Shown here: positions 8,964-31,659 of the stretch, piece by piece
Position numbering within the stretch: position 1 is the first letter of the stretch
How the letters are laid out: every line of letters starts with the position of its first letter
Origin: an uncultured Syntrophus sp.
GTDB lineage: Bacteria; Desulfobacterota; Syntrophia; Syntrophales; UBA5619
DNA length: 36,459 nucleotides
NCBI GenBank assembly: GCA_964403345.1
Contig: CAYOGU010000002.1
Location: 1-36,459 of the forward strand
Direction of reading: 5' to 3'
The notes under the pieces: generated by a model
What the model saw: only the letters and a program-made list of their open reading frames with translations
Databases searched by the model: none
Told to the model about the DNA's origin: nothing
Made by a program: the position numbers and the translations under genes

Positions 8964-9727
8964 ATGTGGAAAAAGAGATGATCATCACGACTAAGAATGT
9001 GGATTTCTATTACGGTGCCTTCAGGGCCCTGACTGATGTGACGCTGGATTTTGAAAAGAACCGCGTCACCGCTTTGATCGGGCCGTCGGGTTGCGGCAAA
9101 TCAACACTCCTTCGGCTCCTCAACCGGATGAACGATCTCATCGACGGGACGCGGGTGGAGGGGGAGATCCTGTTCGAGGGGAAGAACATCTATGCCCCCG
9201 ACGTGGACCCCGTGGGGATCCGCCAGCGGATCGGGATGGTCTTCCAGAAGCCCAACCCCTTTCCAAAATCGATCTTCAACAATATCACCTTTGCCCCGAG
9301 ACTTTCCGGTGTCAGGAACAACGGCGATCTGGCGAACCTCGTGGAGGAGAGCCTCAAACAGGCGGTCCTGTGGGACGAGGTGAAAGACATCCTGGGAAAA
9401 TCTGCCATGACCCTCTCCGGCGGACAGCAGCAGCGCCTCTGCATCGCCAGGGCGCTGGCCATGAAGCCCGACGTCCTTTTGATGGACGAGCCGACCTCGG
9501 CGCTCGATCCAATCTCCACGGCGAAAATCGAAGAGCTCATCGACGAACTCAAGAGACGCTATACGATCATCATCGTGACGCACAACATGCAGCAGGCGGC
9601 TCGCGTATCGGAATACACCGGTTTTTTCTACCTGGGTAAGTTGATCGAATTCAACGCTACGGAAAAGATCTTCACCAACCCCGATGTGAAGCAGACTGAG
9701 GATTACATCACTGGTCGGTTCGGTTAG
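8957..9727 (+). CDS. pstB: Phosphate ABC transporter ATP-binding protein PstB
   Basis: Walker A is GPSGCGKST, the ABC signature is LSGGQQQRL, and Walker B is [11 protein letters not shown]. The PstB-type N-terminus reads NVDFYYG. The start is either GTG 8957 (overlapping the pstA stop) or ATG 8978. Confidence 0.92.
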
Positions 9728-9750
9728 GCGTCAGAGCCGAGGGAGGAACC

Positions 9751-10443
9751 ATGGAAGAAGCCAAGCGACATACCAGCGCGGAATACGAGCGTGAGCTCCA
9801 AGAGATACGGGACGGCCTGCTCTACATGGGGGCTCTGACGGAAAAGGCTTTGGAAAAAGGAATCACGGCGCTCGTGGAGAGAGACTCCGCACTGGCCAAA
9901 CAGGTCATCTGCGAAGACGACCAGGTCGACCGTCTCGATTTCGACTTGGAGGAGAAGTGCATTCGCCTTCTGGCTCTCCGCCAGCCCGCCGCCCGGGACC
10001 TGCGGTTCATCACGACATCGATCAAGATCACCGGCCATCTGGAGCGGATCGGCGACATGGCGGCCAACATCGCCGAGAAGGTCCTCATCCTCAACGAGAT
10101 TCCCCAGATCAAGGCCTACATCGATCTGCCGCGGATGGACCAGATCGTCCGGGGGATGATCCGCAGAAGCCTCGACGCTATGGTGAGCGAGGATGTGGAA
10201 CTGGCCCATCGGGTTCGGGAGGAGGATGTCATCATTGATCGGCTTAACGAGCAGATCTTCAGGGAACTGCTCACATTCATGATGGAAGATCCCCATAAGA
10301 TTCAGGTTTGCCTCTACATCATGCAGATCTCCAAGAGTCTCGAACGGATTGCCGATCACGCCGAGGGGATCGCAGACATGGTGATTTACATGATCACGGG
10401 AAAGAGCGTACGACACCAGCCGACTTGCGGACCGAAGGGATGA
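9751..10443 (+). CDS. phoU: Phosphate signalling complex protein PhoU
   Basis: It has two PhoU repeats with the motifs LERIGDMAANIAE and LERIADHAEGIAD. The RBS is GAGGGAGG. Its stop overlaps the phoR ATG (ATGA at 10440-10443). Confidence 0.92.
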   Translation: MEEAKRHTSAEYERELQEIRDGLLYMGALTEKALEKGITALVERDSALAKQVICEDDQVDRLDFDLEEKCIRLLALRQPAARDLRFITTSIKITGHLERIGDMAANIAEKVLILNEIPQIKAYIDLPRMDQIVRGMIRRSLDAMVSEDVELAHRVREEDVIIDRLNEQIFRELLTFMMEDPHKIQVCLYIMQISKSLERIADHAEGIADMVIYMITGKSVRHQPTCGPKG

Positions 10444-12197
10444 AGAGAAGACTCTCCTTCAAGTTCTTTGTCGTCTTCCTTACGATTGGGGGGACTGCGG
10501 CGCTGATCGCCGGGTTCCTGATCGACCGGGAGCTCAAGGGCGTCCTCATGCGCTGGAGCGAGGAAGAGATGGCGGCCGAAGCGCGTCTGATTGCCTTGAT
10601 TCCCCCGAATCAAGTGTCGGCGCGGATTGTGGAATTTTCAGAAAGTGCCGGCGCCAGGATAACCTTGCTTGACGCCGCCGGCCGGGTCCAGGCCGATTCC
10701 AACCCCGCCGCAATCGAGCCGGGGAACCATCTCTACCGGACGGAAGTCCAGGAAGCCCGCCTGAGGGGGGAGGGATCGGCGGTCCGTTACAGCCGGACCC
10801 TGTCGATCGAACTCCAGTATGTGGCCCTTGCCCTGACAGAGGGGGGGGAGATAAAAAGGTACATCCGCTTGGCTCGTCCCGTTCAGGATGTGGTCCGTTC
10901 CATGGAATCCTTCCGGCGGATTTTTCTGTGGGTGCTCGTTCCGGTCCTGTTCATTCCGCTCTTGCTCTGCCTGATCTACAGCATCCGAACGATTTCGCCC
11001 ATCGGGAAGCTGGTGGCCTTCACCGAAAAGGTACAAGTCGGACAGATTTCCGGGATGGTCAGGATTCCTTCCCGGGACGAGATCGGCGTCCTGGCCGCCA
11101 ACATCAACGGGATGGTCGAGGTCCTGCAGGAGAAGATCCACGCCGCTGATGGGGAAAAAAGAAAACTTCAGTCCCTCTTTACCGGTATGGTTGAAGGGAT
11201 CGTCGTCCTCGATGCCGGCGGACGGATCGAGACCCTCAACCGGGGAATGGAGGAGACGATCGGCCGGTCCCAGGGGGAACTCGTCGGCAGGACGCCCCTG
11301 GAGGCCTTCCGGAATATCGCACTCCAAGATGCCTTGGAGCGTTTCCGGCATTCGGGGACTCCAATTTTTCGCGAGATCACCATGGGGGATGAAAACCCGG
11401 TCGTGATGGACGTGACGCTTTCCGCCATCCGGGGGGAAGCCGGCGGAGAGGAGAAGACCCTGTTGGTCTTCCACGACGTGACGCGCCTGAAGAAACTCGA
11501 GCGCGTCCGCACAGACTTCGTGGCCAACGTCACCCACGAGATCCGGACTCCCCTGACGGCGATTATCGGTTTTGTGGAGACCCTCGAGCAAGGGGCTCTT
11601 GTGGACCGGGAGAAGACCTATAAGTTCCTGGCGACAATCCGCGAAAACGCCGAGCGGCTCAATCGCCTTGTGAACGACCTTCTGACCCTCTCCGGGATTG
11701 AGTTGGGCGAGGAAAATCTCCGTCTCGAACGGCTTTCCCTGGAAGGGGCCCTGGATGATGTCCTGGCCCTTGTGACCGCCCGGGTTATTGAGAAGAATCT
11801 GAAGCTCATCCGGGAGGTCCCGGAAGGACTGCCGCCCATCCGGGCCGACCGGGACCGGCTGACCCAGATCCTGCTCAACGTCCTGGACAACGCCGTCAAG
11901 TTTACACCGGCCGGCGGGTCTATCGCTGTCACGGCTGAACCCGGTGATGAGAGGACCCTGATCGTCCGGATCGCCGACACGGGTGTGGGCATCCCCAAGG
12001 GGGAGATCCCTCGGCTGGGCGAGCGGTTTTATCGGGCGGACAAGACGCGTTCACGGGAAATGGGGGGCACGGGCCTGGGGCTTTCGATCGTCAAACACCT
12101 GATGAAGGCCCATGGGGGACGGATGGCCATCGAGAGCACCCTGGGCCACGGCACCACGGTCTCGCTCCATTTTCCCCTCTATGAGGAGTCGACATGA
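10440..12197 (+). CDS. phoR: Phosphate-regulon sensor histidine kinase PhoR-like (TM - HAMP - PAS - HisKA - HATPase)
   Basis: Track ORF is 10308..12197. ATG 10440 gives MKRRLSFKFFVVFLTIGG (TM). The H-box is FVANVTHEIRTPLTAI. The N/G boxes are LLNVLDNAVKF and GGTGLGLSIVKHL. Its position between phoU and phoB supports the call. Confidence 0.88.
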   Translation: MKRRLSFKFFVVFLTIGGTAALIAGFLIDRELKGVLMRWSEEEMAAEARLIALIPPNQVSARIVEFSESAGARITLLDAAGRVQADSNPAAIEPGNHLYRTEVQEARLRGEGSAVRYSRTLSIELQYVALALTEGGEIKRYIRLARPVQDVVRSMESFRRIFLWVLVPVLFIPLLLCLIYSIRTISPIGKLVAFTEKVQVGQISGMVRIPSRDEIGVLAANINGMVEVLQEKIHAADGEKRKLQSLFTGMVEGIVVLDAGGRIETLNRGMEETIGRSQGELVGRTPLEAFRNIALQDALERFRHSGTPIFREITMGDENPVVMDVTLSAIRGEAGGEEKTLLVFHDVTRLKKLERVRTDFVANVTHEIRTPLTAIIGFVETLEQGALVDREKTYKFLATIRENAERLNRLVNDLLTLSGIELGEENLRLERLSLEGALDDVLALVTARVIEKNLKLIREVPEGLPPIRADRDRLTQILLNVLDNAVKFTPAGGSIAVTAEPGDERTLIVRIADTGVGIPKGEIPRLGERFYRADKTRSREMGGTGLGLSIVKHLMKAHGGRMAIESTLGHGTTVSLHFPLYEEST

Positions 12198-12898
12198 TGC
12201 AGAAGAGGATCCTCGTTGCCGACGACGAGAAGGACATCGTGGAACTGGTTGCCTACAATCTCGAACGGGAAGGATTCTCCGTCCTGAAGGCCTTGAATGG
12301 CGGAAGCGCCCTGGAATCGATCCGGCGTGACAAGCCGGACCTGGTCGTCTTGGACCTGATGATGCCCGGGGTATCGGGAACAGAGGTATGCCGGATCGTC
12401 CGGGGCATCCCCGAGACGGCGAATCTGCCCATTATCATGCTGACCGCCAAGTCCGAACCTGTGGACCGGATCCTGGGACTGGAGATCGGGGCGGACGACT
12501 ACCTTACCAAGCCTTTTCATGTTCGGGAGCTGATCGCCAGGGTCCGCGCCGTCCTGAGGCGATCGGATCAGCACCCAGAGGAAAACCTCCGGGAGTCTTT
12601 CGATTTCCAGGGGCTCCACGTCGATTTGAAGGCCTACCGCGTGACCCTCGAGGGCAGGGAGGTCGAGCTCAGTTCCCGCGAGTTCAAACTACTGCAATTC
12701 TTCATTGGCCATCCCGGCCGTGTTTACAGCCGCGAACAGCTTCTCGACCGCGTCTGGGGTGACGAGGCTTTTGTGGAACCCCGGACGGTGGATGTCCACA
12801 TCAGCCGCCTAAGGGGGGCAATCGAGGCGGACCCTTCGAACCCACGGTATATCCTGACCGTCCGCGGTATCGGCTACAAGTTCGCAGACGAAGCCTGA
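12194..12898 (+). CDS. phoB: OmpR-family response regulator PhoB-like
   Basis: The receiver domain reads ILVADDEKDI...DLVVLDLMMPG...LTAK. The winged-helix output domain reads LSSREFKLLQFF...VDVHISRLR...IRGIGYKF. Its start overlaps the phoR stop. Confidence 0.9.
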   Translation: MMQKRILVADDEKDIVELVAYNLEREGFSVLKALNGGSALESIRRDKPDLVVLDLMMPGVSGTEVCRIVRGIPETANLPIIMLTAKSEPVDRILGLEIGADDYLTKPFHVRELIARVRAVLRRSDQHPEENLRESFDFQGLHVDLKAYRVTLEGREVELSSREFKLLQFFIGHPGRVYSREQLLDRVWGDEAFVEPRTVDVHISRLRGAIEADPSNPRYILTVRGIGYKFADEA

Positions 12899-12920
12899 AG
12901 AGCAGACTTCCCGCCCTTTC

Positions 12921-12974
12921 GTCATCCTTTATTCACGGGGCCTTCATCAAGGGATAACAATTCCGTTCTAGGAT
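12921..12974 (+). promoter_or_regulatory. Putative Pho box plus -10, promoter of the EAL-CBS-GGDEF gene
   Basis: GTCAT 12921, TTCAC 12932, TTCAT 12943 and ATAAC 12954 are spaced exactly 11 bp apart. Ten nt later comes TAGGAT (12969-12974). Confidence 0.6.
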
Positions 12975-13085
12975 GACGTCATTTCGGCTGAAAACCATGC
13001 AACCCGGACCTGTTCCAAAGAGGTTCACAAAAAGGTTCCAGAGGAAGGACTGAGTCCGGAATAATAATGAGTCAGAGGGAAAAAC

Positions 13086-14924
13086 ATGTATGCCCAGCTG
13101 ATGGAAGAGGCTTCCCGTGATGTGGAGGTCCCCAGCCGCTCCAGGGATGTCGGGGAGACGGAGGTGGATGCCTTTGTCGAGTCGATTCAGGTGACTCCCC
13201 ATTTCCACCCGGTGATCGATCTTTTCTCCGCCTCGGTCACGGGGTTTGAAATCCTCTCCAGAGGCGTCGCCCCTTATGAGACTCCCTGCCGGATGTTCTC
13301 GGCTGCCAAACAGCGGGGGGCGACCTGGGAACTGGAGAGGGCCTGCCGTGTCGCCGCCATGAGGAAGATCGCCTCCCTTCCAGAGCCGTTCCGAAAAGTC
13401 CAGTTTTTTATCAACGTCAGCCCGGATATCTTCAGCGACCCCCGTTTCATCGAGAAATTCACCCAGAAGCGCCTCAGGGAGTATGGCATCGATCAGAGGC
13501 AGATCGTCATCGAGATCACCGAGGAAAAGACTTTCGAGGATTTCAAGCAGTTCGGGACGCTGGTCGCCCATTACGCGAACCAGGGTTTCAAAATCGCTGT
13601 GGACGACTTCGGGTCCGGTTATTCGGGGCTGGTGACCCTGATTGCCTCGACCCCCCATTACTTGAAACTAGATATGGCGATCGTCAGGGATGTCCACCGC
13701 CACGACTACAAACAGAAGATCGTCAAGGCCATTACGGCATTTGCTTCCAGCGTCAACGCCAGGTTGATCGCTGAAGGCGTCGAGTCTTTGGATGAGTTGG
13801 AGGTTCTGGTCCGGTACGGCGTCCGGTATGCCCAGGGCTTCCTCTTCGGTCGGCCCGAGCGGGAACCCTATGCCCTCAAAGAGGAGATGAGAAAGAAACT
13901 CAGGGCGCTGATCGACAAGTACGACCAAGCCACGATCGATGTGGACGAGAAGGTCGCGAGTCTCGTGATCCGCCCCATGACGATCGCCGCCCACACCCTG
14001 CACTGCAAGGATCTGGATATGATATTCAAAAAGCGGACCCATTTGGATCACGTAATCCTCCTCGACGGAGAAAGCATCGCCGGGATGATCACGCGACAGA
14101 ATTTCTATGCGGAAACCGGCGGCGCCTTCGGATATCAACTCTTCCAGAAGAAGCCAGTCGAGGTCGTCTGCAAACCCAATCCCCTGATCGTCGAGGACAA
14201 GATGACGGTGACGATGATGGCGAAACTGGCGATGGATCGCCTTTCGGAAGACCTGTACGATCCGGTTCTGGTGGTGGATGCCGAAGGGAAATTCATGGGG
14301 ACCGTGACCATGAAGCAGGTGATGACCAAATCGCTGGAACTGGAGATCCGCTCCGCCATGGGGGTCAACCCCCTGACGGGATTGCCGGGTAATAACGCGA
14401 TTCACCGCTGGATCCATGATGCCCTGGCTTGGTCCGAATATTCGATCATTTATATCGATCTCGACCATTTCAAGGTTTACAACGACACCTATGGGTTTCT
14501 CATGGGGGATGAGATGCTTTGCCTTACAGCACGGGTCCTGGGCGACTGGCTGAACCGGCTTCCGGAGGGGGCCAGGTTGGGACATATCGGCGGCGACGAC
14601 TTTGTGATCGTTAACCGGGGCATCATTCGGGGAGAGGTATTGGAATGCCTGTGTAGCGGCTTTGATGCCGAGAAACTCGGTCTTTTCAAGAACGAAGACG
14701 TCGAAAGGGGTTGTATCCTTGGAGCGGCGGACCGTCAGGGCAATCCGCTCATCACGCCGCTGATCACCATGAGCGTGGCTGTTATTGACAGCAGCAAAGT
14801 TTGGGTGGACCCGCATCCGGCCCTCTTTTCGGAAGTCGCCGCTTCGCTGAAAAAGAAGGTCAAAAGGCTGACGGCAGAAACAGGGAAGAGTGGATATCTC
14901 TTAGAGCAACGGCTCCATGTTTGA
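13086..14924 (+). CDS. EAL - CBS pair - GGDEF(GGDDF) cyclic-di-GMP turnover protein
   Basis: The EAL-domain residues look intact: GFEILSR, FFINVSP, IEITEE, AVDDFGSGYSG, LKLDMAIV, AEGVES, AQGFLFGRP. A central CBS-like region follows. The C-terminal cyclase fold reads YIDLDHFKVYNDTYGFLMGDEML but has GGDDF instead of GG(D/E)EF and no RxxD I-site. Confidence 0.88.
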   Translation: MYAQLMEEASRDVEVPSRSRDVGETEVDAFVESIQVTPHFHPVIDLFSASVTGFEILSRGVAPYETPCRMFSAAKQRGATWELERACRVAAMRKIASLPEPFRKVQFFINVSPDIFSDPRFIEKFTQKRLREYGIDQRQIVIEITEEKTFEDFKQFGTLVAHYANQGFKIAVDDFGSGYSGLVTLIASTPHYLKLDMAIVRDVHRHDYKQKIVKAITAFASSVNARLIAEGVESLDELEVLVRYGVRYAQGFLFGRPEREPYALKEEMRKKLRALIDKYDQATIDVDEKVASLVIRPMTIAAHTLHCKDLDMIFKKRTHLDHVILLDGESIAGMITRQNFYAETGGAFGYQLFQKKPVEVVCKPNPLIVEDKMTVTMMAKLAMDRLSEDLYDPVLVVDAEGKFMGTVTMKQVMTKSLELEIRSAMGVNPLTGLPGNNAIHRWIHDALAWSEYSIIYIDLDHFKVYNDTYGFLMGDEMLCLTARVLGDWLNRLPEGARLGHIGGDDFVIVNRGIIRGEVLECLCSGFDAEKLGLFKNEDVERGCILGAADRQGNPLITPLITMSVAVIDSSKVWVDPHPALFSEVAASLKKKVKRLTAETGKSGYLLEQRLHV

Positions 14925-15015: not shown

Positions 15016-15996
15016 ATGATGAGGAAGCGCTGGATCATTCTGGGAGCATGCCTGCTGATTGGTCTCGCGCTTTTCTTCGTCCATCAGCGGTTCAACAGCG
15101 CTGTTCCCAGGTTTCATGATTCACCCAGGATGACCGCAGATTCCGAAAGACGTTCCACTCGCTGGTACCGCAAGAGCGCCTTCACCAGACTGAGGGGCGT
15201 TGCTTTGGTTGTTCACGGCTTGAACATGAAGCCTGATAGGATGGAATTCCTGATCAAGTGGTTGAACCATGCGGGCATCGAAGCCCTGAATCTGTCGCTC
15301 CACGGACACGGCGAGAACTATTTCCAGAGTGAGGAGAGGAATTGCGAGGAGGCGAGGCTGGATTCCTTCCGAACCGTGACCTACCGGCTCTGGTCGGACG
15401 AGGTGTATGTCGCTTATCAAAAGGCCAAGCAGCGCGCTCGGCAAAAGGGGGTTCCTCTCTTCCTGGTCGGATATTCCCTGGGGGGGCTTCTGGGATGCGA
15501 GTTGCAGGTTTCCATGCCCGACGTTTTCTTCGACCGGATGGCCCTATTCTCCCCTGCCCTCAGGATTACCCTGAAGCCCTATCTCCTCAAAGTCCTCATG
15601 CCGTTCCCGGACCTGGTGCTCGACAGCCTGTCGCCGGAGGCTTATCGCGCTAATGCCGGGACACCCATGGCCGGTTACAAGGCCCTGTTCGAGGCCCTGA
15701 CCCTTTTCGAGGAGAACCGGAACGATAAACTGAACGTGCCGACGGTTGTCTTCCTGGATCGAGAGGACGAATTTATCTCTTACGACGATTTGGCTCAGAT
15801 GATTGCTACCGGTCATCTCGACCGATGGCGGATCGTCGACGTGCAGAAGGATCCGCCGGAGGCCGCGTTGTACGCCCATCATCTGATGATCGACGAGACC
15901 GCAGTCGGACGGATCATGTGGTCGAAAATGCAGGCCGTGCTTCTTTCGCACCTAGTCGGCGATGGTACGCTGGGTTCCCGTTTACGAGGAAGGTGA
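15016..15996 (+). CDS. Membrane-anchored alpha/beta-hydrolase (lipase/lysophospholipase-like)
   Basis: It has an N-terminal anchor (RWIILGACLLIGLALFFV). The oxyanion-type motif is VVHGLNMKPD and the nucleophile elbow is GYSLGG. There is no separate promoter motif, so it is likely co-transcribed with the preceding gene. Confidence 0.7.
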   Translation: MMRKRWIILGACLLIGLALFFVHQRFNSAVPRFHDSPRMTADSERRSTRWYRKSAFTRLRGVALVVHGLNMKPDRMEFLIKWLNHAGIEALNLSLHGHGENYFQSEERNCEEARLDSFRTVTYRLWSDEVYVAYQKAKQRARQKGVPLFLVGYSLGGLLGCELQVSMPDVFFDRMALFSPALRITLKPYLLKVLMPFPDLVLDSLSPEAYRANAGTPMAGYKALFEALTLFEENRNDKLNVPTVVFLDREDEFISYDDLAQMIATGHLDRWRIVDVQKDPPEAALYAHHLMIDETAVGRIMWSKMQAVLLSHLVGDGTLGSRLRGR

Positions 15997-16023: not shown

Positions 16024-18465
16024 TTAGTGGTGGACAGCGTCCAGACGGTCGTCTGCGTTCTCGATGGGAGCGCGTACGCGTTCCGCCTCCCGGCGATCGA
16101 AGCGGATGGTGACGATCAGAATGGAAATCAGTCTACGCAGGAGTTCCGGAGGGACATTTCTGTCGCTGACGGCGTATCTGAGGGATTCGGAGCAAACGCC
16201 TTCACCGCCGATCGCCCGCCGGAGGCCGTTCAGGAAATCTCTTTCGCTGCAATCGGCGGCATCGATGCGCTGCAGATCTTCCTCGAGAAAGCGGACCCCT
16301 TCCAGAGCATGGGCCTTGCGCAGGTCGTTGCGGTAGTAGTCCTCGGCGCTGCGGTTGAAGTCAGCGGCCTGCATCTCCATCGGGGAGGCGGCCTTGGCCT
16401 TTTGGAGGATGGCCTGCGTCAGTTTTCCCAGGGCGGAATGGCGGTCGGGGTCTTCCAGCCTCTTTTCAAGGTCGGCGATCCTTTCGGCCATCCCGAGAAC
16501 TTTAATCAGATTCGCCCCGTCTTTCCGGATAATCCGCACGAGGGCCCGGCAATACTCCCGGTGGTGGACCCTCCAGTAGCCGGGATAGCGCCGGCTGGCT
16601 CTGACACGTTGGGTATTTTCGATGATCCGCTGTAGGAAAAGGTTCTGGGTGTCCTGCCGGACGAAAAAGGTGGGGATGCCCACGGCCCGCCCGAAGACAA
16701 TTTGCCGTCTCTCGCTCTCGACAAAGGGACCGTCGGGGATGCGGTTGTGGTCGGCGAGACCTTCGGCAATATACTGGAACGCTAGGGCCGTGAGGAGGTT
16801 CTGCAGATCCACGGCCCCGGCCATATCCTCTTCGAGACTGAAGAAGAGGCTGTAGGAGCGTCCTTCGAAACCGGAAAACCCCATGGTGGCATACTCACGG
16901 AGTTTGTTGAACAGGTAGAGGGACATCCGCTTGTCGAAGACGCCCAGCTCGGCAAGATCCTGCTTGAGTCGGTCATGGTTGTGAAGCATTCCGTCCAGTG
17001 CCGGGCTCTTTTCTGTGCTCCTCAGGGCCACTAGGTAATCGATGAGGCGGAAGTCAGGGAGAAAATCGCCGCGGAGCCTGAAAATGTTACGGATCGCCCT
17101 GTCGAGCCAGGGGGGGCCGAAGGGGGTCACTGTTTTCCTAAAGATGTTGATGTCCGCCTTCTTCTGCCAACGCCTCCAGAGCATGCGCAGGTGGTCGAAA
17201 TCCAGTTCATGGGGAAGGAACCCCAAGACGCATTCCGGATGGAATTCCGAGTAGTCGAGCCGGTAGGGGGTCGCACTGTAAGTACCCACGAAGAGGGGGA
17301 GGAAATGCTCCAGGATTTTGATGACCAGATCCCCGAGGTATTTCTCGTGGCGGGACGTGAAGCCGGAGGCCGGGTCCTTCAGAAGAGCGGTGAGTTTCCG
17401 GCTGCCGAGGCTGACGTGCGTTCCATTGTTGGCCAGACTGATGTTGGAAGTATTCGGAAGGACCACGAGGTTGCGCGTGATGATGCCCGATTCGCGGAGC
17501 TTCCCCAGGGCATTGAGCTGGCTGCGGCTCAGGACCCGATGACACAGGTGCATGTATTCCTTTTTGATCTCGCCGCGGTTCCAACCCGACAGGCAGGGGT
17601 TCATGAAAAGTTCTCGATAAAAGGCGTCGGAGATGCATGCGTTAAGCCTCTTCTGGCGGATTGGTGGATGGGGCGAGTAGAATACCATCGCTCTCTGCCC
17701 GCTCTGCATAAGGCCGAAACGCTGGTTAGCGTACTGAACGAGCAGTTGCGTCAGGAGGAACCGCTTTGCCGATTCCCTGGCCACCTCTCGGCCCATCCCG
17801 GTCCGGGGAGTTAGGGACGAAACCTGGAAGGAACATATCTCGGGCGAGGTGTTGTCGCTCAGGAAGTGATCCATCAACCTGCGTCCAGTCTCGGCCACGG
17901 CGGGGGGCTGTCCGTCGATCGCCTCGGCCAGGGAGAGCTTCAACAGATAACTGATCGGGATGCGGAGATATTCCCGGCCTTCCTGCCGGAAAGTGAAATC
18001 GGTCAGGTCGGTTCGGTATCCCTGGGAGGGGTCGGCCTTATCCGCCAAGAGGTCGCCATTGAGGATCCCTTGGGCGAAGAGTCCCAGCATGTCCCTGGGG
18101 AAGCGGACCCAGCTGTTTTCCCACACGCCGTCGACATTATCCTGGAGGTACTTTTCCAGCTCGGTCATCGCCCGTCCTGGCAGTTCGCCGGAGGCCCTCC
18201 GCCGGATGATGTTGGCCAGGTAGTTGGACCGTGCAATCGTGATGGGGAGATCGACATCTTCCCTCTTTCCGATCACGATGGCCTGAAGCTCAGTTTCGCT
18301 TCCGGCAGTCGTGTCGTAAAGGGAGAAGGGCAGGGCCTCGGCATCAATGCCGGACGGCCCGTAAACGCCAAATTTTTCCGTCGCCTCCCGGGCGGAGAGA
18401 AGACGTTCCTCCGGGCCCCGCATCGGGACCAGGGGGAGGGAGAGGGAGTTTTCAATTCTGCTCAC
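16024..18465 (-). CDS. Large (813 aa) cytoplasmic protein of unknown function; I recognise no family
   Basis: The ORF is uninterrupted and has coding-like composition. GTG start 18465 follows AAGGAA at 6-nt spacing. No TM segment, signal peptide, Walker motif or other motif I can name is present. The antisense ORFs over it are R/G/P-rich shadows. Confidence 0.75.
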   Translation of the reverse strand: MSRIENSLSLPLVPMRGPEERLLSAREATEKFGVYGPSGIDAEALPFSLYDTTAGSETELQAIVIGKREDVDLPITIARSNYLANIIRRRASGELPGRAMTELEKYLQDNVDGVWENSWVRFPRDMLGLFAQGILNGDLLADKADPSQGYRTDLTDFTFRQEGREYLRIPISYLLKLSLAEAIDGQPPAVAETGRRLMDHFLSDNTSPEICSFQVSSLTPRTGMGREVARESAKRFLLTQLLVQYANQRFGLMQSGQRAMVFYSPHPPIRQKRLNACISDAFYRELFMNPCLSGWNRGEIKKEYMHLCHRVLSRSQLNALGKLRESGIITRNLVVLPNTSNISLANNGTHVSLGSRKLTALLKDPASGFTSRHEKYLGDLVIKILEHFLPLFVGTYSATPYRLDYSEFHPECVLGFLPHELDFDHLRMLWRRWQKKADINIFRKTVTPFGPPWLDRAIRNIFRLRGDFLPDFRLIDYLVALRSTEKSPALDGMLHNHDRLKQDLAELGVFDKRMSLYLFNKLREYATMGFSGFEGRSYSLFFSLEEDMAGAVDLQNLLTALAFQYIAEGLADHNRIPDGPFVESERRQIVFGRAVGIPTFFVRQDTQNLFLQRIIENTQRVRASRRYPGYWRVHHREYCRALVRIIRKDGANLIKVLGMAERIADLEKRLEDPDRHSALGKLTQAILQKAKAASPMEMQAADFNRSAEDYYRNDLRKAHALEGVRFLEEDLQRIDAADCSERDFLNGLRRAIGGEGVCSESLRYAVSDRNVPPELLRRLISILIVTIRFDRREAERVRAPIENADDRLDAVHH

Positions 18466-18514
18466 AGACAGTTCCTTTCGAAAGGTTTTCTGATTCTCTT
18501 AAATTCGATTCGTT

Positions 18515-18566
18515 TCTATACGATTCCTGTGACGAGGTGATGACGTTTGGATGAATCCTCCGTGAA
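18515..18566 (-). promoter_or_regulatory. Putative Pho box plus -10 for the 813-aa gene (minus strand)
   Basis: Read on the minus strand, the pentamers are TTCAC (c18562-18566), TTCAT (c18551-18555), GTCAT (c18540-18544) and GTCAC (c18529-18533), at exact 11-bp phasing. TATAGA (c18515-18520) follows after 8 nt. Confidence 0.6.
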
Positions 18567-18692: not shown

Positions 18693-18749
18693 TTCATGAG
18701 ATCTTAACGACTCCGTCATATTCGCGTTACAGTTTGATGATTGGATAAT
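18693..18749 (+). promoter_or_regulatory. Putative Pho box plus -10 for the ATP-grasp/amphi-Trp/kinase operon
   Basis: TTCAT 18693, TTAAC 18704, GTCAT 18715 and GTTAC 18726 are spaced exactly 11 bp apart. GATAAT (18744-18749) follows after 13 nt. It lies in the AT-richer divergent intergenic region. Confidence 0.6.
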
Positions 18750-18779
18750 CAAAATTTCGGAGAAGAGGGACCGTTGTTC

Positions 18780-19922
18780 ATGCCATCAATCAGAAACCTC
18801 CAAGATGCCGTGGAGGAAATTACGGAATGGGATCTGCAGCTCTTTGACAAACTGACTACAATGGAACTTACCCCGTTGCAGATCGAACGCATCGTCTGCC
18901 CGGGGAAGATTTTCGAGACAGAAGGGTCCGTTCTGGCCATCCACTGGCACCCGGAGATGGTCGCCCTGCCGCTGGTCGAAACGAGGCTGCGGAGGGTCTA
19001 TCCTCATGCCGGTCAGACTCTGATCATCCCGACTCAGCACAATGAGATCCTCGTCTACGGTGATTACGCGGGTGCCGAGGTAGACTGCCGGGCCGATGCC
19101 TTCAATCGCAAAATTCAGATCCTGCTTCATTTCCGGTCCGAAGAGATCAAAAAGGCCCACAGCCTGAGGTCCATGATTGCCCATACCTGCCAGTATCGGC
19201 AGACGCAGTTGTTCGAGTTTCTGGAAACCTTGGCCGATCCCCGACATGAAGGGTGCCTCATGGAAGCGGCCAGGCATACGGGAACCGAGAAGGCAATGGT
19301 CCTCTTTACCGGAGTTCTGGTCGGAAAGCTCAAGAAAATGATTGAATTGAGGTCGGATTCGATTCCCGACATGGCACTGAAGAACAAGCTGGTTATCAGT
19401 TACATCAACGCCCATCGGGAGTTTTACGATTCCCTTGCAATCGACCGGTCGGTGATCTTTGCGGCCGGAGTCAAGGAGGTCGTGAAGCGGCGATTTCGTC
19501 TCGACTATTTCTATGAGGTGAACGAGATCATTGAGGAAGCCAGAGGGTTGGACGGCGGGGTCATCGTGCCCCATCCGGAGCAGTTCTGGCCCGTCCTACT
19601 GGCCGATTATGATGTGGACGGCTATGAGGTCTGGAATCCTCAATCCCGGGAGTTTACGGAATTCTTGATTCAGACGGTGATCAGGAAGAACAAGGCCGGG
19701 CAGGGAGGCAGACGCCTGCTGGTCATGATGGGGGACGATACCCATCTGAGCGAAAAAATCCTTGATCCTGAACAACAGGATCCCGACAAAGCCGCCCGTG
19801 AAATCGGCCATCAACCCCCTTGGGACGACAAGGCCGTCCGCAAGATTCTCAATATGGGGGATTTCGATAAGAGAAAAGTCATCGACGAGTACCAATCTCG
19901 CCTTGCCGGCGGAACGGTTTGA
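18780..19922 (+). CDS. Hypothetical protein with a PHP-like (metal-dependent phosphoesterase) motif series
   Basis: Track ORF is 18741..19922 (TTG). ATG 18780 follows GGAGAAGAGGGA. The ordered motifs resemble the PHP fold: AIHWHPE (HxH), IPTQHNE, IVPHPEQ, GYEVWNP, MMGDDTHL (DxH). There is a long insertion between the second and third motifs. The family call is tentative. Confidence 0.55.
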   Translation: MPSIRNLQDAVEEITEWDLQLFDKLTTMELTPLQIERIVCPGKIFETEGSVLAIHWHPEMVALPLVETRLRRVYPHAGQTLIIPTQHNEILVYGDYAGAEVDCRADAFNRKIQILLHFRSEEIKKAHSLRSMIAHTCQYRQTQLFEFLETLADPRHEGCLMEAARHTGTEKAMVLFTGVLVGKLKKMIELRSDSIPDMALKNKLVISYINAHREFYDSLAIDRSVIFAAGVKEVVKRRFRLDYFYEVNEIIEEARGLDGGVIVPHPEQFWPVLLADYDVDGYEVWNPQSREFTEFLIQTVIRKNKAGQGGRRLLVMMGDDTHLSEKILDPEQQDPDKAAREIGHQPPWDDKAVRKILNMGDFDKRKVIDEYQSRLAGGTV

Positions 19923-19933
19923 GAGGGGGCTGC

Positions 19934-20215
19934 ATGGAACAGGGCAAGGACTTTCAACACGAATCCATCGAAGACAAGGAATCCGTTGTCCGATACCTCC
20001 AAACCCTTTCCGATGGGTTCCGGAGCCAGAGGCTGGAGTTTCAGACCGGCCAGGAGGAAATCCTCCTTGAGCCGTCGGGCCTGATCCAGGTCGAGATCAA
20101 GGCCAGAAGCCGTCATCGGAAGTCGAAGCTTTCCATCAAGTTTGTCTGGAAGGATCAACGGCAAGCCGAAGGCAAGCCGAAGCGGGTCCTGGCCATCCGG
20201 ACCAATCAGGGATGA
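19934..20215 (+). CDS. Small amphi-Trp-domain-like protein (paralog 1)
   Basis: ATG 19934 follows GAGAGGGGG. The pattern shared with the 25098 and 25658 products is: helix (VVRYLQTLSDGFRSQRL), then ILLEPSGLIQVEIKA, then KSKLSIKFVWKD with the near-terminal Trp. Its stop overlaps the next ATG. Confidence 0.7.
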   Translation: MEQGKDFQHESIEDKESVVRYLQTLSDGFRSQRLEFQTGQEEILLEPSGLIQVEIKARSRHRKSKLSIKFVWKDQRQAEGKPKRVLAIRTNQG

Positions 20216-21849
20216 GTCCGATGTTCGTCTTCAAGGGCCTCAATGAAAACTTCATGTTTCTCGTTGTGCGGATCCGGCGACAGTTGGAGGACACGCTCGG
20301 TGTCCTGGAATTCGGTGAGAAGACCCTTCCGGACCGCATGAGGACCCGCGAGGACTATATCGACAACCTCAAGATCACCATCGAACGGAAGAGCTACCGG
20401 AAGATTTTGAGGAGCCGCTCGGAAGACGACCGGGTCATCCGGATGATGGGGTCCCTCAACACGGCCGTGAGCAATCTCGAGGAAATCGGCGACTACCTGA
20501 TCAACATCGTGACCCAGGTGCAGTATTTAAGCGACCCCACCTTCATGGGTCGCTTCGACTACCAGGCTTATTTCCGATTGATTGCGGATGCTCTCGATCT
20601 GATCGTGCCCAGCCTGTTTAAGGGAATCATCAAGGACGCCCTGTCCGTCTGCCGGACGGAGATCGAGCTGGATCAGCTCTACAAGCGGGATTTCGATGCC
20701 GTCATGGCGATTCTCCGGGAGGGGCGCGATATCGGCAATGCGGTCACCGCCCTCATGATCCTCCGTTATCTGGAGCGGATCGGCGATTCGCTTCTCAACA
20801 TCGGAGAGGCCATCATTTCCGCCTATGCCGGCAGCAGGCTGAAACTCTTCGAGTACCTGGCCCTGCAGGACCATCTCCCCGCGGCCGGCGGTAACTTCAC
20901 CATCGAAGACATTCATGCCGAGACCCGTTCGGGATGCCGCGTCGAAAAGGTCATATCCGCGGATATCCCGAAAGGCGTCCAAGAAGCGATCTTCAAGGAG
21001 GGGGATCTGGGGAAGATCGAACAGGAGAAGGAAAAACTAGGGCGCTGGCAGGAGATCATGCCGGGTTTGACGCCGAAGGTCTTCGGTTTTCAGCCCCTCA
21101 ACGGCAAGGCGTTCATGCTCCTGGAGTGCATCGACGGCCTGAATTTTCAGGAGATCGTCATCAAGCAGAACGGCGTGTTGTTCCGGCAGGCCTTCGGAGA
21201 ACTGAAGAACGTCATGGATGCGGTCTGGACACGGACCAAACTTCCCGAGGCTAAACCGGCGAACTTCATGCGGCAGCTCCTGGGGAAATTACCCGAAGTC
21301 TATGAGGTCCACTCCTCCTTCTACAGGCCGACTCAGATGATCGGCAGCCTGGAACGGCCGCCCTTCGTCGACCGGCTGGAGCATGCGGCGAGGATCGAAG
21401 CGGTCCTGATGCCCCCCTTTTCCGTCTTCATCCATGGCGACTTCAACGCGGACAATATTCTCTACAACCACCGGGAAAACCGCATTTACTATATCGACCT
21501 CCATCGTTCCCACGACCTTGACTATATACAGGACGTGTCCGTCTTCATGATTTCGTATTTCCGGATGCCGTTATTCAATCCAGGCATGCGCAACTGGTTG
21601 TCGGAGGTGATCGATGAGTTCTACTGCTTCGCGAGGCATTTCTCGGAGCGGCACGGGGACGAGACCTTTGATGCCCGATTGGCTCTTGGCCTGATCCGGT
21701 CTCTGATCTCCTCCACGAGGTTTATCCTCAAGGAGGATTTTTCCAAGGACCTTTTTCTGCGTGGGATCTACCTGCTGGATCGGCTTTTGGAGCATGAGGG
21801 AAGGCCATGGGAACAGTTCCGCGTTCCCCGGGATATATGGGTTTATTGA
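20212..21849 (+). CDS. PhoU-domain / aminoglycoside-phosphotransferase-like kinase fusion protein
   Basis: The N-terminal half has two PhoU-type repeats ending LEEIGDYLINIV and LERIGDSLLNIGEAI. The C-terminal half has an APH/choline-kinase-type catalytic loop FIHGDFNADNILY and YYIDLHRS. The ATG overlaps the preceding stop (ATGA at 20212-20215). Confidence 0.8.
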   Translation: MSPMFVFKGLNENFMFLVVRIRRQLEDTLGVLEFGEKTLPDRMRTREDYIDNLKITIERKSYRKILRSRSEDDRVIRMMGSLNTAVSNLEEIGDYLINIVTQVQYLSDPTFMGRFDYQAYFRLIADALDLIVPSLFKGIIKDALSVCRTEIELDQLYKRDFDAVMAILREGRDIGNAVTALMILRYLERIGDSLLNIGEAIISAYAGSRLKLFEYLALQDHLPAAGGNFTIEDIHAETRSGCRVEKVISADIPKGVQEAIFKEGDLGKIEQEKEKLGRWQEIMPGLTPKVFGFQPLNGKAFMLLECIDGLNFQEIVIKQNGVLFRQAFGELKNVMDAVWTRTKLPEAKPANFMRQLLGKLPEVYEVHSSFYRPTQMIGSLERPPFVDRLEHAARIEAVLMPPFSVFIHGDFNADNILYNHRENRIYYIDLHRSHDLDYIQDVSVFMISYFRMPLFNPGMRNWLSEVIDEFYCFARHFSERHGDETFDARLALGLIRSLISSTRFILKEDFSKDLFLRGIYLLDRLLEHEGRPWEQFRVPRDIWVY

Positions 21850-21899
21850 TTCCGCAGGTGGAGTTTCGAGAAGCGATTCGGCGGAAAGGATGACAAGGG

Positions 21900-22781
21900 A
21901 TGGTGAAGATCGGTGTCGTCGGCATTTCCGGGAGGTGGTCCTCGGAAGAGATGACGGCGGCCGTCGAAAAGAAGACGGGCTTTCGGCTTCTTGTGGAGAT
22001 GGACCGCGTTCGCTATGAATCGCGGCGGGAGACGCTGTTCTACAAGGGGGTCGATCTGGGCACCCTCGACGGCCTGATCGTGAAGAAGATTGGGGCGCGG
22101 TTCAGTCCGGACCATCTCCAACGTCTGGAGATGCTGCGTTACCTTAGGGCGCGGGGGGTCAGGGTCTTCTCAGATCCCGCCGCCATTGCCCGCTGCCTGG
22201 ATCGTCTCAGCTGCACCCTCACCCTACGGCTCGGGGGGATTCCCATGCCGGAGATAGTCCTGACGGAACATATCGAGGCGGCCGAGGCGGCCGTCCGTCG
22301 GTTCGGACAGGCCGTCTTCAAGCCGCTTTTCACATCCAAGGCCCGAGGAATGGAGGTGATGAGGAGTGATGATCCGGAACTACGGGAAAGCATCGGTGCC
22401 TTTAGAGAACAGGGCAATTGCCTCTTGTATGTGCAGAAGAAGATCGACCTGCCGGGCCGTGACCTGGGGATCGCCTTTCTCCGGGGGCGCTATGTGGGCG
22501 CCTACGCCCGCGTCGCCCCGGCCGGGTCCTGGAACACGACGACGGTCAACGGTGGGCGCTACGAGGCCGCGAAACCCTCCCGGGACATTGTCGAACTGGC
22601 CTCCCGTGCTGCGGCGCTGTTCGGGCTCGATTTCACCTGTGTAGACGTCGTGGAAGGCCACGAAGGCCCGATGGTCTTCGAGGTCTCGGCCCTGGGCGGG
22701 TTTCGTGGACTCTGGGAGGCTCAGGGGATCAATATGGCTGAGATGATCGTGGATTCCGTCCTGGAGGCCGTTCATGAATAA
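21900..22781 (+). CDS. RimK-like ATP-grasp ligase
   Basis: The ATP-grasp layout reads AVFKPLFTSKARGMEVM, LLYVQKKIDLPGRDLGIAFL and MVFEVSALGGFRG. Confidence 0.8.
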   Translation: MVKIGVVGISGRWSSEEMTAAVEKKTGFRLLVEMDRVRYESRRETLFYKGVDLGTLDGLIVKKIGARFSPDHLQRLEMLRYLRARGVRVFSDPAAIARCLDRLSCTLTLRLGGIPMPEIVLTEHIEAAEAAVRRFGQAVFKPLFTSKARGMEVMRSDDPELRESIGAFREQGNCLLYVQKKIDLPGRDLGIAFLRGRYVGAYARVAPAGSWNTTTVNGGRYEAAKPSRDIVELASRAAALFGLDFTCVDVVEGHEGPMVFEVSALGGFRGLWEAQGINMAEMIVDSVLEAVHE

Positions 22782-23865
22782 TCCTCAGACGGTTCTGTTC
22801 CAGGATCTCTTCGACGATCTCCGGAATCGCTATCCGACCCACGAGCGGCTCTTTGTCGGGATAGGGGAGTTGATCATCCAGGTCAAGTCGAATTCGCCGG
22901 ACCTGATGGCGGAGTTGCGCCGTTACTTCAAGGAGTTCACGTGCTGGGAATCCCAAGAGGACATCCTGATCTATGCCATCGAGTCCGATGAGATGCCCTT
23001 GCCCCTGGTCCTCCGGCAGAAGGGTCCCGATCCGGGCAAGAACAGGGTCAAGGAAGAATTTGCGGACCTGGCGGGCGGAAGGATCGTCCGGAAACGCCTG
23101 ACCGGTCTCTGTTTCCTCTTCAACGGGCACGACAACATGGCGGTCGGACCCTGTCGGGCCAACAGCAATCAGATCGTCAATTTCATCAACAACCGCTTTA
23201 TCGAGCGGATGCTCCGGGGAGGGAGCCTCCTGTCCCATGCCGCTGGTGTTGCCATGGGGGACCGAGGGCTGGCGCTCGCCGGTTTCTCCGGGAGCGGCAA
23301 GTCGAGCCTCGCGCTCCACCTTCTGACACGGGGGGCCTCCTTCGTCAGCAACGACCGGTTGATGACCGCGGAGCGCTGGGGACGCCTCAGGATGTACGGC
23401 ATTCCCAAGCATCCCCGCGTCAATCCGGGGACCCTCCTGTCCGTCCCGGTGCTTCGAGAGGTGATCAGCGACGAGGATCGGCGGTTGTACGCCGATTGGG
23501 ATTCCGAGGCATTATGGCACCTGGAGCGAAAGTACGACGTGATGATCGACGAGGTCTTCGGCGAGAAGAAATTTCATTTGAGCGCCCTGATGAAGGGTCT
23601 GCTTTTGCTCAACTGGAGGAGAGACGGCGGGACCCTTTGCATTCGCCCCGTGGAAATCGACCGGCGGCGGGACCTCCTGGCTGCCTTCATCAAGCCTCCC
23701 GGTCTTTTCTTTTTTCCTGAGGAACTGGAGACGCCTCCCGATTTTTCAAGCGAACGCTACGTGGAGCAGCTCCGCAACTGTGCCGTCTTTGAGGCGACCG
23801 GAGAGATCGATTTCGACGGGGCGGCGGTTTTTTGTCTCGACTTCCTGCGGGAGGAAGGGACATGA
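22774..23865 (+). CDS. HPr-kinase-related P-loop kinase
   Basis: The P-loop and downstream motif GFSGSGKSSLALHLLTRGASFVSNDRLM mirror HprK (GxSGxGKS...GhxLvaDD). Its start overlaps the ATP-grasp stop by 8 nt. Confidence 0.75.
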   Translation: MNNPQTVLFQDLFDDLRNRYPTHERLFVGIGELIIQVKSNSPDLMAELRRYFKEFTCWESQEDILIYAIESDEMPLPLVLRQKGPDPGKNRVKEEFADLAGGRIVRKRLTGLCFLFNGHDNMAVGPCRANSNQIVNFINNRFIERMLRGGSLLSHAAGVAMGDRGLALAGFSGSGKSSLALHLLTRGASFVSNDRLMTAERWGRLRMYGIPKHPRVNPGTLLSVPVLREVISDEDRRLYADWDSEALWHLERKYDVMIDEVFGEKKFHLSALMKGLLLLNWRRDGGTLCIRPVEIDRRRDLLAAFIKPPGLFFFPEELETPPDFSSERYVEQLRNCAVFEATGEIDFDGAAVFCLDFLREEGT

Positions 23866-25079
23866 AGACCCTGCAGGAACCGGGACAGCTTCCGCAGCGG
23901 ATCGTTCTGCAACGCCGCGCCTTGCTGCCTGACAAGCTGAAGATCGCCCGTTATGAAAAGGCGCCCGAACTCGGACCGCGTCTGCTCTTCTTCAGCGGAG
24001 GCAATGCCCTCAAGCGGTTCAGCAAGACCCTGATCCGGTATACCCACAATTCCGTCCACATCATCACCCCCTTCGATTCCGGGGGCAGTTCCGCCGAGAT
24101 CCGCCGTGCCTTTCGGATGCTCTCCATCGGGGACGTGAGGAACCGCCTCATGGCCCTTGCCGATCAGTCCATCAAGGGCAACCCAGAAATCTATCGACTT
24201 TTTTCCTACCGGCTTCCTGCGGACGATCCATCAGACCGACTCCGGGAGAAGCTGCAGATGATGGCCGAAGGCCTGGATTCCCTCGTCGACGGCATCCCCG
24301 TGCCGATGCGGGCCATCGTCTGCGGCCATATCGGGGACTTCCTCCGGCTCATGCCCGGCGACTTCGATCTTCGGGGGGCGAACATCGGCAATATCATCCT
24401 GACGGCTGGCTATCTGAATCACCATCGCCACATCGAGACGGTCATCTATCTATTTTCAAAACTGGTGGAGGTCCAGGGACTGGTTCGGCCCGTCGTCACC
24501 GACGACCTCCACCTGGCGGCGAGGCTCCAAAGCGGTCAGATCCTGGTGGGACAGCATCGGATCACCGGCGATTCGTTTCTCAAGGCGAGAAGCCCCATCG
24601 ATGAGCTGTTCCTGAGCGCTTCGGCCGATCAGCCCGAGCGGGTCCAGACGGAGATTTCCTCCGAAACAGCGGCCCTGATCGACGGCGCCGAGATCATCTG
24701 TTACCCCATGGGGAGCTTCTATTCGAGTGTTCTGGCGAATCTCCTTCCGCGTGGCGTGGGCGCCGCCATTGCCGCCAACCGTTGTCCCAAAGTGTTTGTC
24801 CCCAATACGCTCCCCGACACGGAGCAGGCAGGGATGTCCCTGGGCGATGCCGTCCGGACCATGATCCGGTGTCTTCAGGGGGATCGTTCGGGAGACCCCA
24901 CCGACTACCTGGACTGGATCGTTCTGGACAGCAGGTGGGGGAGGTATCCTTTCGACCTTGATCTGGAGAGGATCCGTGAGTGGGGGATCGGGATCCTCGA
25001 AGCGACGCTGGTCTCCGAGGAAAGTTCGCCCTACGTTGATCCTGAACATCTCTGCCATGTCCTTCTGTCCCTAACATAA
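23862..25079 (+). CDS. CofD/YvcK-family (2-phospho-L-lactate-transferase-like) protein
   Basis: Track ORF is 23832..25079. ATG 23862 overlaps the preceding TGA (ATGA). Family-typical motifs are LLFFSGGNALKRF, ITPFDSGGSSAEIRR and GDVRNRL. Confidence 0.78.
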   Translation: MKTLQEPGQLPQRIVLQRRALLPDKLKIARYEKAPELGPRLLFFSGGNALKRFSKTLIRYTHNSVHIITPFDSGGSSAEIRRAFRMLSIGDVRNRLMALADQSIKGNPEIYRLFSYRLPADDPSDRLREKLQMMAEGLDSLVDGIPVPMRAIVCGHIGDFLRLMPGDFDLRGANIGNIILTAGYLNHHRHIETVIYLFSKLVEVQGLVRPVVTDDLHLAARLQSGQILVGQHRITGDSFLKARSPIDELFLSASADQPERVQTEISSETAALIDGAEIICYPMGSFYSSVLANLLPRGVGAAIAANRCPKVFVPNTLPDTEQAGMSLGDAVRTMIRCLQGDRSGDPTDYLDWIVLDSRWGRYPFDLDLERIREWGIGILEATLVSEESSPYVDPEHLCHVLLSLT

Positions 25080-25657: not shown

Positions 25658-25957
25658 ATGGCAAGTCAACAATTGAAGGTCAAATCGAAAGTGGCATTGG
25701 TGGAAGTGATCAAACATCTGGAACACCTGGTGACATCCCTCAAGGAAGGTCAGCTCTGCATCCGGAAAAATGACGAGGTCATCAACCTGAAACCCCAGGA
25801 TCCGGTTACTTTCGAACTGGAGGCCGAGGCCAAGCTGGAGAAGGACAATCTGCGGGAGAAACTCGTCATCGAACTGAAATGGAAAAAGGGCGAGGCTGCG
25901 CCGATGGAAGGCGACAGTTTGTCCATCAGCCATCTTGATCCGGCGTCCGAACTCTGA
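25658..25957 (+). CDS. Small amphi-Trp-domain-like protein (paralog 3)
   Basis: The RBS is AGGAGG (25644-25649). The domain reads VIKHLEHLVTSLKEGQLCI ... INLKPQDPVTFELEA ... KLVIELKWKK. Confidence 0.72.
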   Translation: MASQQLKVKSKVALVEVIKHLEHLVTSLKEGQLCIRKNDEVINLKPQDPVTFELEAEAKLEKDNLREKLVIELKWKKGEAAPMEGDSLSISHLDPASEL

Positions 25958-31582: not shown

Positions 31583-31659
31583 GGCTTCTGTTCTCCGGTG
31601 AGAGGCGGGACGACCCGCGTTCCGCCTCTCCGGCGGCAAAGGGGAGGAAAAGGGTGCCG

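Follow-up and report, generated by a model that had tools for sequence, protein, structure and literature searches.

The DNA analysed here, called the window throughout, is a stretch of 36,459 nucleotides from an uncultured Syntrophus sp. (GenBank assembly GCA_964403345.1, contig CAYOGU010000002.1, positions 1 to 36,459). Its minus strand carries the gene of an unannotated protein of 813 residues, X813, for which structural modelling makes it fairly probable that it is an ATP-dependent carboxylate–amine ligase of the Pho regulon, acting in a three-enzyme pathway to a phosphorus-free lipid head group. X813 probably helps to build a phosphorus-free membrane lipid, a reading carried by the Pho boxes, a conserved gene triad, the protein fold and invariant active-site motifs. 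One of the major ways in which microbes respond to phosphorus scarcity is to exchange phospholipids for lipids that lack phosphorus, and the known gene sets, PlcP/Agt, BtaAB, OlsBA/F and those for sulfoquinovosyl diacylglycerol (SQDG), do not account for the lipids of anaerobic sediments and sulfate reducers.

A first-pass annotation, made from the letters of the window alone, had delimited the gene as a minus-strand open reading frame (ORF) with a GTG start preceded by the ribosome-binding site AAGGAA; this gene model was confirmed, and the methionine at position 1 is conserved in the alignment of the family. The same annotation regarded the protein as an orphan, which it is not. Of the candidates scored, more than 2900 proved to be homologs at E ≤ 1e-3; they are without exception about 800 residues long, labelled ‘hypothetical’ and without Pfam domains. 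In an exhaustive search of 1.84 billion cluster representatives 864 clusters (50% identity) matched the hidden Markov model of the family, 399 of them at E ≤ 1e-30. Relatives are present in at least 574 GTDB species genomes, with carriers among the Syntrophales, Geobacteraceae, Desulfuromonadales, Ca. Brocadia, Nitrospinae and Blastocatellia, including the cultured Trichlorobacter lovleyi, Geobacter pelophilus, Citrifermentans bremense and Syntrophus buswellii. Pfam returned no match for X813 and 36 members even at E ≤ 10, nor for 10 divergent members at E ≤ 1; the NCBIfam scan of X813 and the sequence searches of the PDB with X813 and a 36-sequence profile were equally empty. X813 is the founding member of an unnamed, widespread family.

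The genes that travel with this family were identified by de novo clustering of neighbouring ORFs followed by Pfam searches, and were then counted by tblastn across 80 species loci with an X813 homolog (L-numbered below). Among the 68 loci with enough flanking sequence for this count, a gene for a phosphatidylserine-decarboxylase-like (PSD-like) pyruvoyl enzyme (PF02666, ~340 aa) immediately follows the X813 homolog on its strand in 63, and a gene for a membrane protein of the diacylglyceryl transferase family (Lgt-like or LGT-like; PF01790, ~350 aa) is no more than 4 kb away in 60. The two are often separated by a gene for a DksA-like zinc-finger protein. The cassette usually forms a single operon, placed within or beside phoB/pstSCAB, and in several Smithella/Syntrophaceae genomes the order X813-PSD-DksA-LGT-pstS-pstC-pstA-pstB runs along one strand. 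Even the most divergent full-length members (35–38% identity) keep X813-PSD-LGT, with overlaps of 4 nt between the genes. Both partners look catalytically competent to judge from their sequences, since the PSD-like protein keeps the PGSST and YHY.H motifs and the LGT-like protein the GR...GCCYG and WR..SE..R.D motifs. In Geobacteraceae the cassette repeatedly adjoins genes of the sort expected in lipid remodelling under Pi starvation, namely those for PhoH, PsiE, a Zn-phospholipase C and a fusion of PHP with a GT4 glycosyltransferase.

The exceptions to this gene order coincide exactly with the window's own clade (L001–L003, L044). Here the PSD-DksA-LGT genes start at about position 36205, right behind a Pho-box array of their own, and the window ends within the first of them. 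On the 71-kb source contig (L081) they can be followed in full at 11491–13979 as a PSD-like protein of 335 aa, a DksA-like protein of 140 aa (12515–12937) and an LGT-like protein of 350 aa, the PSD and LGT genes being homologous to those that follow X813 elsewhere. Going by the predicted boxes, the cassette is split in this lineage between two Pho-box promoters 18 kb apart, with a box kept by both halves.

Several further observations concern the surroundings of the cassette. The DksA/TraR-type zinc-finger protein (~140 aa) lies inside it in ~20 genomes, as a probably Pho-regulated DksA paralog in a putative lipid operon. The most divergent cassettes are followed by TAXI (TAtT) and TRAP DctP/DctQM genes (L085, 10281–14119; L087, 5081–8900), whose products may import a carboxylate substrate. 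Cassettes of Geobacteraceae are flanked by the ~820-aa fusion of a PHP phosphoesterase with GT4 and by DUF6134, DUF2062 and the Zn-phospholipase C (PF00882), upstream and divergent in L055, L067, L072 and L075 and downstream in L055, L067, L070, L075 and L076; this arrangement looks like a combined module for phospholipid degradation and glycolipid synthesis. In the window, a convergent gene for an alpha/beta-hydrolase (PF12146, Hydrolase_4, lysophospholipase/monoacylglycerol-lipase-like; 15016–15996, plus strand) ends 28 nt from the X813 stop codon and also adjoins X813 homologs in L001–L003, L011, L016 and L052. Its product may be another lipid-remodelling accessory.

What kind of enzyme X813 might be became visible in its predicted structure. 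A first AlphaFold2 model, built on 36 sequences of at least 56% identity, had a predicted local distance difference test (pLDDT) score of 65 and a disordered core, and its Foldseek search gave only noise. With representatives of 50% clusters down to 33% identity added (alignment A2: 56 sequences, 33–91% identity), the model reached a pLDDT of 91.7 and a predicted TM score (pTM) of 0.93. In the Foldseek search of the PDB, the top 16 matches were all GshF, GshA, yeast γ-glutamylcysteine ligase (GCL), PafA or Dop, with probabilities from 1.00 to 0.5, and none of the later matches exceeded 0.04. GshF (3LN6/3LN7) reached a probability of 1.00. For E. coli GshA (2D32/1VA6/1V4G) the probability rose to 0.94 and the target-normalised TM score to 0.50; Dop (7oxv, 0.93), PafA (4bjr, 0.85), Francisella GshA and yeast GCL were matched as well.

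Along this fold, five motifs follow one another in the same order as those of GshA and, for four of them, YbdK, whose sequences were verified against PDB entries 1V4G and 1R8G, respectively. The first is G-S-E57-T-E59-L-Q in X813 (strand 52–59), G-L-E27-R-E29-T-L in GshA and G-I-E17-L-E19-M-Q in YbdK. The second pairs W-E116-N of X813 with L-E67-F of GshA, and the third N-G-T-H350-V-S (strand 349–355) with S-G-V-H150-Y-N of GshA and G-Q-H136-V-H of YbdK. The fourth reads S-A398-T-P400-Y, G-A-S-P-A and A-A-S-P-Y in the same order of proteins, and the fifth F-E534-G-R536 (strand 532–537), I-E328-V-R330 and V-E237-V-R239. The GshA motif residues are presumably its Mg2+/ATP ligands; E27, E29, E67, H150, E328 and R330 reportedly have metal-ligand roles. 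In A2 the X813 residues of all five motifs are invariant or nearly so, which makes E57, E59, E116, H350, E534 and R536, all of them on strands of the predicted structure, the putative catalytic residues of the modelled protein. The first-pass annotation could name no catalytic signature, but the GCL motif set is recognisable once X813 has been modelled, and the patch that it had singled out as most distinctive, LANNGTHVSLGS, is the putative catalytic histidine strand with the invariant N347, G348, H350 and S355. Altogether ~37 residues are invariant across 33–91% identity and cluster on the predicted active-site strands, and a scaffold or other non-enzymatic role was rejected on this ground. 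Since the fold matches that of the superfamily, which is marked by an active-site funnel of antiparallel β-sheet, and GCS and GCS2 show no sequence match, X813 is, as far as the model goes, a new family within the known GCL/GS superfamily and not a member of GshA or YbdK.

The second pillar is regulation. The Pho box that the first-pass annotation had assigned to X813 recurs upstream of its orthologs: at 31 of 70 loci, a four-pentamer array with a score of at least 18/20 starts no further than 350 nt before the X813 homolog, against a background expectation of 0.017 per upstream region searched. When the comparison is limited to genes with an intergenic upstream region of at least 100 nt, arrays precede 27 of 49 X813 homologs, 8 of 10 PstS genes and 25 of 183 other genes (X813 versus other genes, Fisher p = 9e-9). 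Homologs that lack a box usually come directly after phoB. In 40 of the 80 loci there is a PhoB homolog, which often lies divergent or just upstream and is the commonest regulatory neighbour; pstSCAB-phoU is found in ~20 of the 80. In many genomes the X813 homologs either follow phoB directly or run in the direction of pstSCAB. Taken together, these sequence patterns make it very probable that X813 is induced by limitation of inorganic phosphate (Pi).

In the window, the two arrays of four 11-bp-phased pentamers first described upstream of X813 and the divergent GAK operon were recovered, 126 bp apart, and have the same architecture as those at pstS1 and pstS2 (Table 1). A degenerate four-pentamer pattern, built from the very five sites that it matches in the window and with the pstS promoters as internal positive control, found no site in 100 dinucleotide-preserving shuffles. 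Under relaxed scoring (at least 18/20), 11 positions forming ~9 arrays were found in the window and none in mononucleotide shuffles. The layout of the X813 array is identical to that of both pstS promoters, whose −10-like elements (TATGCT and TATATT) lie ~15 nt past the array, at an offset similar to that of the candidate −10 of X813. A sigma-70 consensus promoter was not found in the X813 upstream region, and there is no −35 element, as expected of a PhoB-dependent promoter. By its predicted boxes the window is a Pho-regulon island, in which X813 and the GAK operon account for two of about nine Pho-box promoters. The phoR-like/phoB pair presumably encodes the regulators acting on these boxes. 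Elsewhere in the window, a 921-aa ORF (601–3366, plus strand) had no family match in the NCBIfam scan, the only one made for it.

Table 1. Positions in the window of the X813 gene, its control elements, the Pho-box arrays and the phosphate-related genes.
Feature	Position	Strand	Basis or remark
X813 gene (813 aa)	16024–18465	minus	ORF call, GTG start
Shine-Dalgarno AAGGAA of X813	18472–18477	minus	6 nt 5′ of GTG; read from the sequence
Candidate −10 TATAGA of X813	18515–18520	minus	8 nt past last pentamer; inference from the sequence
X813 Pho-box array TTCAC-N6-TTCAT-N6-GTCAT-N6-GTCAC	18566→18529	minus	11-bp phase, two predicted PhoB-dimer sites
GAK-operon Pho-box array TTCAT-N6-TTAAC-N6-GTCAT-N6-GTTAC	18693–18730	plus	sequence and pattern match
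pstS1 Pho-box array, four pentamers	6150–6187	plus	pattern match
pstS2 Pho-box array, four pentamers	34632–34669	plus	pattern match
Fifth array, before PSD-DksA-LGT	36127–36164	plus	pattern match, 1 mismatch
Pho-box array before EAL-GGDEF-CBS gene	12921		relaxed score
Pho-box array before PIN-PhoH	28763		relaxed score
Pho-box array before phosphonate-type ABC transporter (30725–33388, minus)	33456	minus	relaxed score
Pho-box array before MCP fragment	34565	minus	relaxed score
pstS-pstC-pstA-pstB-phoU	6224–10443	plus	NCBIfam
phoR-like histidine kinase	10308–12197	plus	NCBIfam PnpS/PhoR
phoB	12194–12898	plus	NCBIfam TIGR02154
Second pstS (pstS2)	34715–35539		family scan
PSD-like gene, 5′ end, cut by window end	36205–36459	plus	tblastn to cluster PSD

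From the fold, the partners and the regulation a pathway can be sketched, of which we infer the substrates, the order of steps and the lipid product. When phosphate runs out, a PhoB-activated promoter would express X813, and the ligase would form an amide bond between a γ-carboxylate, such as that of glutamate, and the amine of an amino acid, such as cysteine. The Lgt-like enzyme would then transfer the diacylglyceryl group of a phospholipid to the thiol of this acceptor, freeing glycerol phosphate for scavenging, and the PSD-like enzyme would remove the free α-carboxyl. The product would be a zwitterionic, phosphorus-free N/S-lipid taking the place of a phospholipid.

A lipid of this kind has been described. 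Under phosphorus limitation, Desulfatibacillum alkenivorans replaces phosphatidylethanolamine, phosphatidylglycerol and cardiolipin with glucuronosyl lipids and N-butyramide cysteine glycerols (BACys) (Ding et al. 2024, PMC11181052). In this anaerobic member of the Thermodesulfobacteriota BACys are formed only under Pi limitation, and their head-group ion is C7H13N2O3S+ at m/z 205.064, with a tentative structure based on MS2 only (PMC11181052). Taking CO2 away from γ-Glu-Cys leaves C7H14N2O3S, for whose S-linked cation an m/z of 205.0641 is calculated; as the BACys ion holds only three oxygens, the link to glycerol is most simply made through sulfur, i.e. by Lgt chemistry. At the level of the formula, the match between the proposed cassette product and BACys is no more than suggestive. 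The GCL-fold ligase would in this case join Glu and Cys; the Lgt paralog would draw diacyl- or alkyl-glycerol from a phospholipid, freeing glycerol phosphate, and bind it to the thiol of Cys as a thioether; and the PSD paralog would decarboxylate the α-carboxyl of the γ-glutamyl moiety, yielding 4-aminobutanoyl-(S-glyceryl)cysteine. That the X813/PSD-like/Lgt-like triad is the BACys pathway of phosphorus-starved anaerobes is a tentative proposal, to which we give clearly less credence than to the broader one of a phosphorus-free lipid. Literature searches found no genes assigned to BACys and no prior description of the cassette or of Lgt-like enzymes in the remodelling of lipids under phosphorus starvation. 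An ortholog in Desulfatibacillum was sought through the homolog of L070, a record labelled uncultured Desulfobacteraceae, and the matches were from Geobacteraceae. The closest relatives of the L070 protein all belong to Geobacteraceae/Desulfuromonadales (70–80% identity), and the taxonomic label of this bin is probably wrong.

Several points weigh against a ligase in a lipid pathway. The best Foldseek E-value is a modest 4.7e-3 and the target-normalised TM score only 0.5. Neither GCS (PF04262) nor GCS2 (PF04107) matched any of the 36 members at E ≤ 10, and hhalign comparisons of the X813 profile with the single GshA and YbdK sequences were not significant, because of which the ligase assignment rests on fold and motifs and not on sequence homology. 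The residue equivalences are based on motif order and predicted strands, and the C-terminal helical domain of ~300 residues has no assigned role. As to the partners, the LGT-like proteins read GR..C.SFGCCYG where canonical Lgt has GRxGNFxNxExxG. Cysteine replaces the residues at the N146/E151 positions of the canonical signature, so that the chemistry of the LGT-like enzyme may differ.

Of the alternatives, the one that survives best keeps the Pho control and changes the product: a different amino-acid head group, an N-acylated derivative of a phospholipid, or a soluble decarboxylated dipeptide, with no thioether lipid. The present results leave the substrates undefined, the Lgt-like signature is altered, and carboxylate transporters of the TAXI/TRAP type follow the divergent members, all of which such a product would accommodate. 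We nevertheless regard it as rather unlikely, given that the enzyme trio and the phospholipase C and glycosyltransferase neighbours fit membrane remodelling best.

X813 could also be a divergent γ-glutamylcysteine ligase without a role in lipids, whose product, soluble γ-Glu-Cys or a thiol similar to glutathione, gives starving cells redox protection. GshF and GshA are its best structural matches, and it has kept the motifs for metal and ATP. Such a role is improbable, however, as it leaves unexplained the near-obligate translational coupling to an Lgt-like membrane transferase and a PSD-like decarboxylase, a control by Pho rather than by redox, the extra ~300 residues, and the insert of ~200 residues by which X813 differs from GshA between motifs 1 and 2.

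A protein or peptide substrate is a further option: like PafA or Dop, both of which are among the Foldseek matches (at 0.85 and 0.93), X813 might ligate or deamidate the γ-carboxylate of a peptide or protein, for instance when it modifies a lipopeptide or lipoprotein that the Lgt-like enzyme has produced. Canonical Lgt does act on protein cysteines. Yet the cassette has no conserved small ORF that resembles Pup, GshF and GshA outscore PafA and Dop, and the PSD-like pyruvoyl decarboxylase needs a free α-amino acid moiety, which small head groups provide better, leaving this option quite improbable.

Least probable is the suggestion of the first-pass annotation that X813 works together with the divergent GAK operon, as a scaffold, synthetase or hydrolase co-induced through back-to-back boxes, since the GAK genes are missing from 79 of the 80 homolog loci, other and strongly conserved partners of X813 exist, and the ~9 Pho-box promoters of the window make co-regulation unspecific to the pair. 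The GAK genes themselves (18741–25079, plus strand) were identified by the NCBIfam models TIGR04354, TIGR04355, TIGR04356 and TIGR04357, comprising amphi-Trp (TIGR04354), a PhoU-kinase fusion, ATP-grasp (TIGR04356), HprK-B (TIGR04355) and CofD-like (TIGR04357) genes; X813 itself matched none of the GAK models in NCBIfam. The two genes are indeed adjacent and divergent with an array each, and the PhoU-kinase fusion makes the GAK operon phosphate-related too. The arrangement is preserved in L001, but this is a sister genome of 90% identity and, in tblastn searches with all window proteins, the only one of the 80 loci (64 of them with more than 2 kb of upstream flank) in which GAK genes accompany the X813 homolog. 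Linkage to the amphi-Trp, CofD-like and HprK-like genes is thus not conserved, an outcome that the first-pass annotation had itself named as fatal to its claim. Its guess ‘synthetase’ was right in kind, and a Pho-regulated synthetase is supported. Co-induction holds as shared Pho control, which is what back-to-back boxes in an island of about nine arrays indicate, but it extends to pst, phoH, phn and further genes and is not peculiar to GAK. As a general lesson, when divergent promoters in a regulon island answer to the same regulator, this is no evidence that their genes are functional partners.

The GAK operon deserves attention for its own sake. Its kinase gene (20212–21849) encodes a fusion with a PhoU domain (PF01895 plus APH). 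The first ORF of the operon (18741–19922, plus strand; 393 aa, probable ATG at 18781) matches neither Pfam nor NCBIfam, and a second amphi-Trp gene follows the operon at ~25658–25957. With a Pho box of its own and a PhoU-fused kinase, the uncharacterised GAK system is suggested to be a phosphate-starvation function itself.

For the X813 family, which had no annotation, the analysis provides a predicted fold, a putative active site, a place in the Pho regulon and two near-obligate enzyme partners. As a directly testable three-gene candidate, the cassette is a plausible new pathway to N/S lipids that contain no phosphorus, and it gives metagenomic work on Syntrophales, Geobacterales and anammox bacteria a marker for the remodelling of lipids under phosphorus stress. 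If it does make BACys, this would reveal a new logic of lipid biosynthesis, with Lgt chemistry on a small molecule, and would place the pathway in hundreds of anaerobes, among them Syntrophales, Geobacterales and Brocadia.

Compared with known enzymes, X813 resembles E. coli GshA (1V4G/2D32) and the GCL domain of GshF (3LN6/3LN7) in fold, these being its near-exclusive Foldseek matches, and GshA also in the collinear ExE, E, H, (A/S)-x-P and ExR motifs. Unlike GshA, it shows no detectable sequence homology to that protein, has 813 rather than 518 residues, and is Pho-regulated and coupled to lipid enzymes instead of glutathione synthetase. It carries the same motif set as YbdK/GCS2 (1R8G), but is twice the size and has no PF04107 match; the sole hhalign alignment, of X813 378–484 with YbdK 144–243, which pairs FLPLFVGTYSATPY with FVPHFIALSAASPY, is not significant (E = 0.089, probability 0.6%). 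With PafA/Dop it shares the superfamily fold found by Foldseek, whereas a Pup-like partner gene is absent and the genomic context differs. The partner proteins reach the Pfam gathering scores of Lgt (PF01790) and Psd (PF02666) and keep, respectively, R...E..R and the self-cleavage motif GS(S/T), yet they are paralogs of ~350 and 335 aa restricted to the X813 cassette.

As a system, the cassette recalls PlcP-Agt, BtaAB and OlsBA/OlsF in its Pho-box control and its association with phospholipase C and GT4, and it follows the logic of phosphorus-free lipid systems in general, i.e. the replacement of phospholipids under Pi stress (PMC4796936, PMC11181052). None of the enzymes of those three systems is part of it, however, and the chemistry that it implies—an amide ligase combined with diacylglyceryl transfer and decarboxylation—differs from theirs and, as far as the literature searches reached, is previously undescribed. 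As to the product, ligation by a GCL-like enzyme, transfer by an Lgt-like one and decarboxylation by a PSD-like one could, at the level of the formula, give exactly the head group of BACys.

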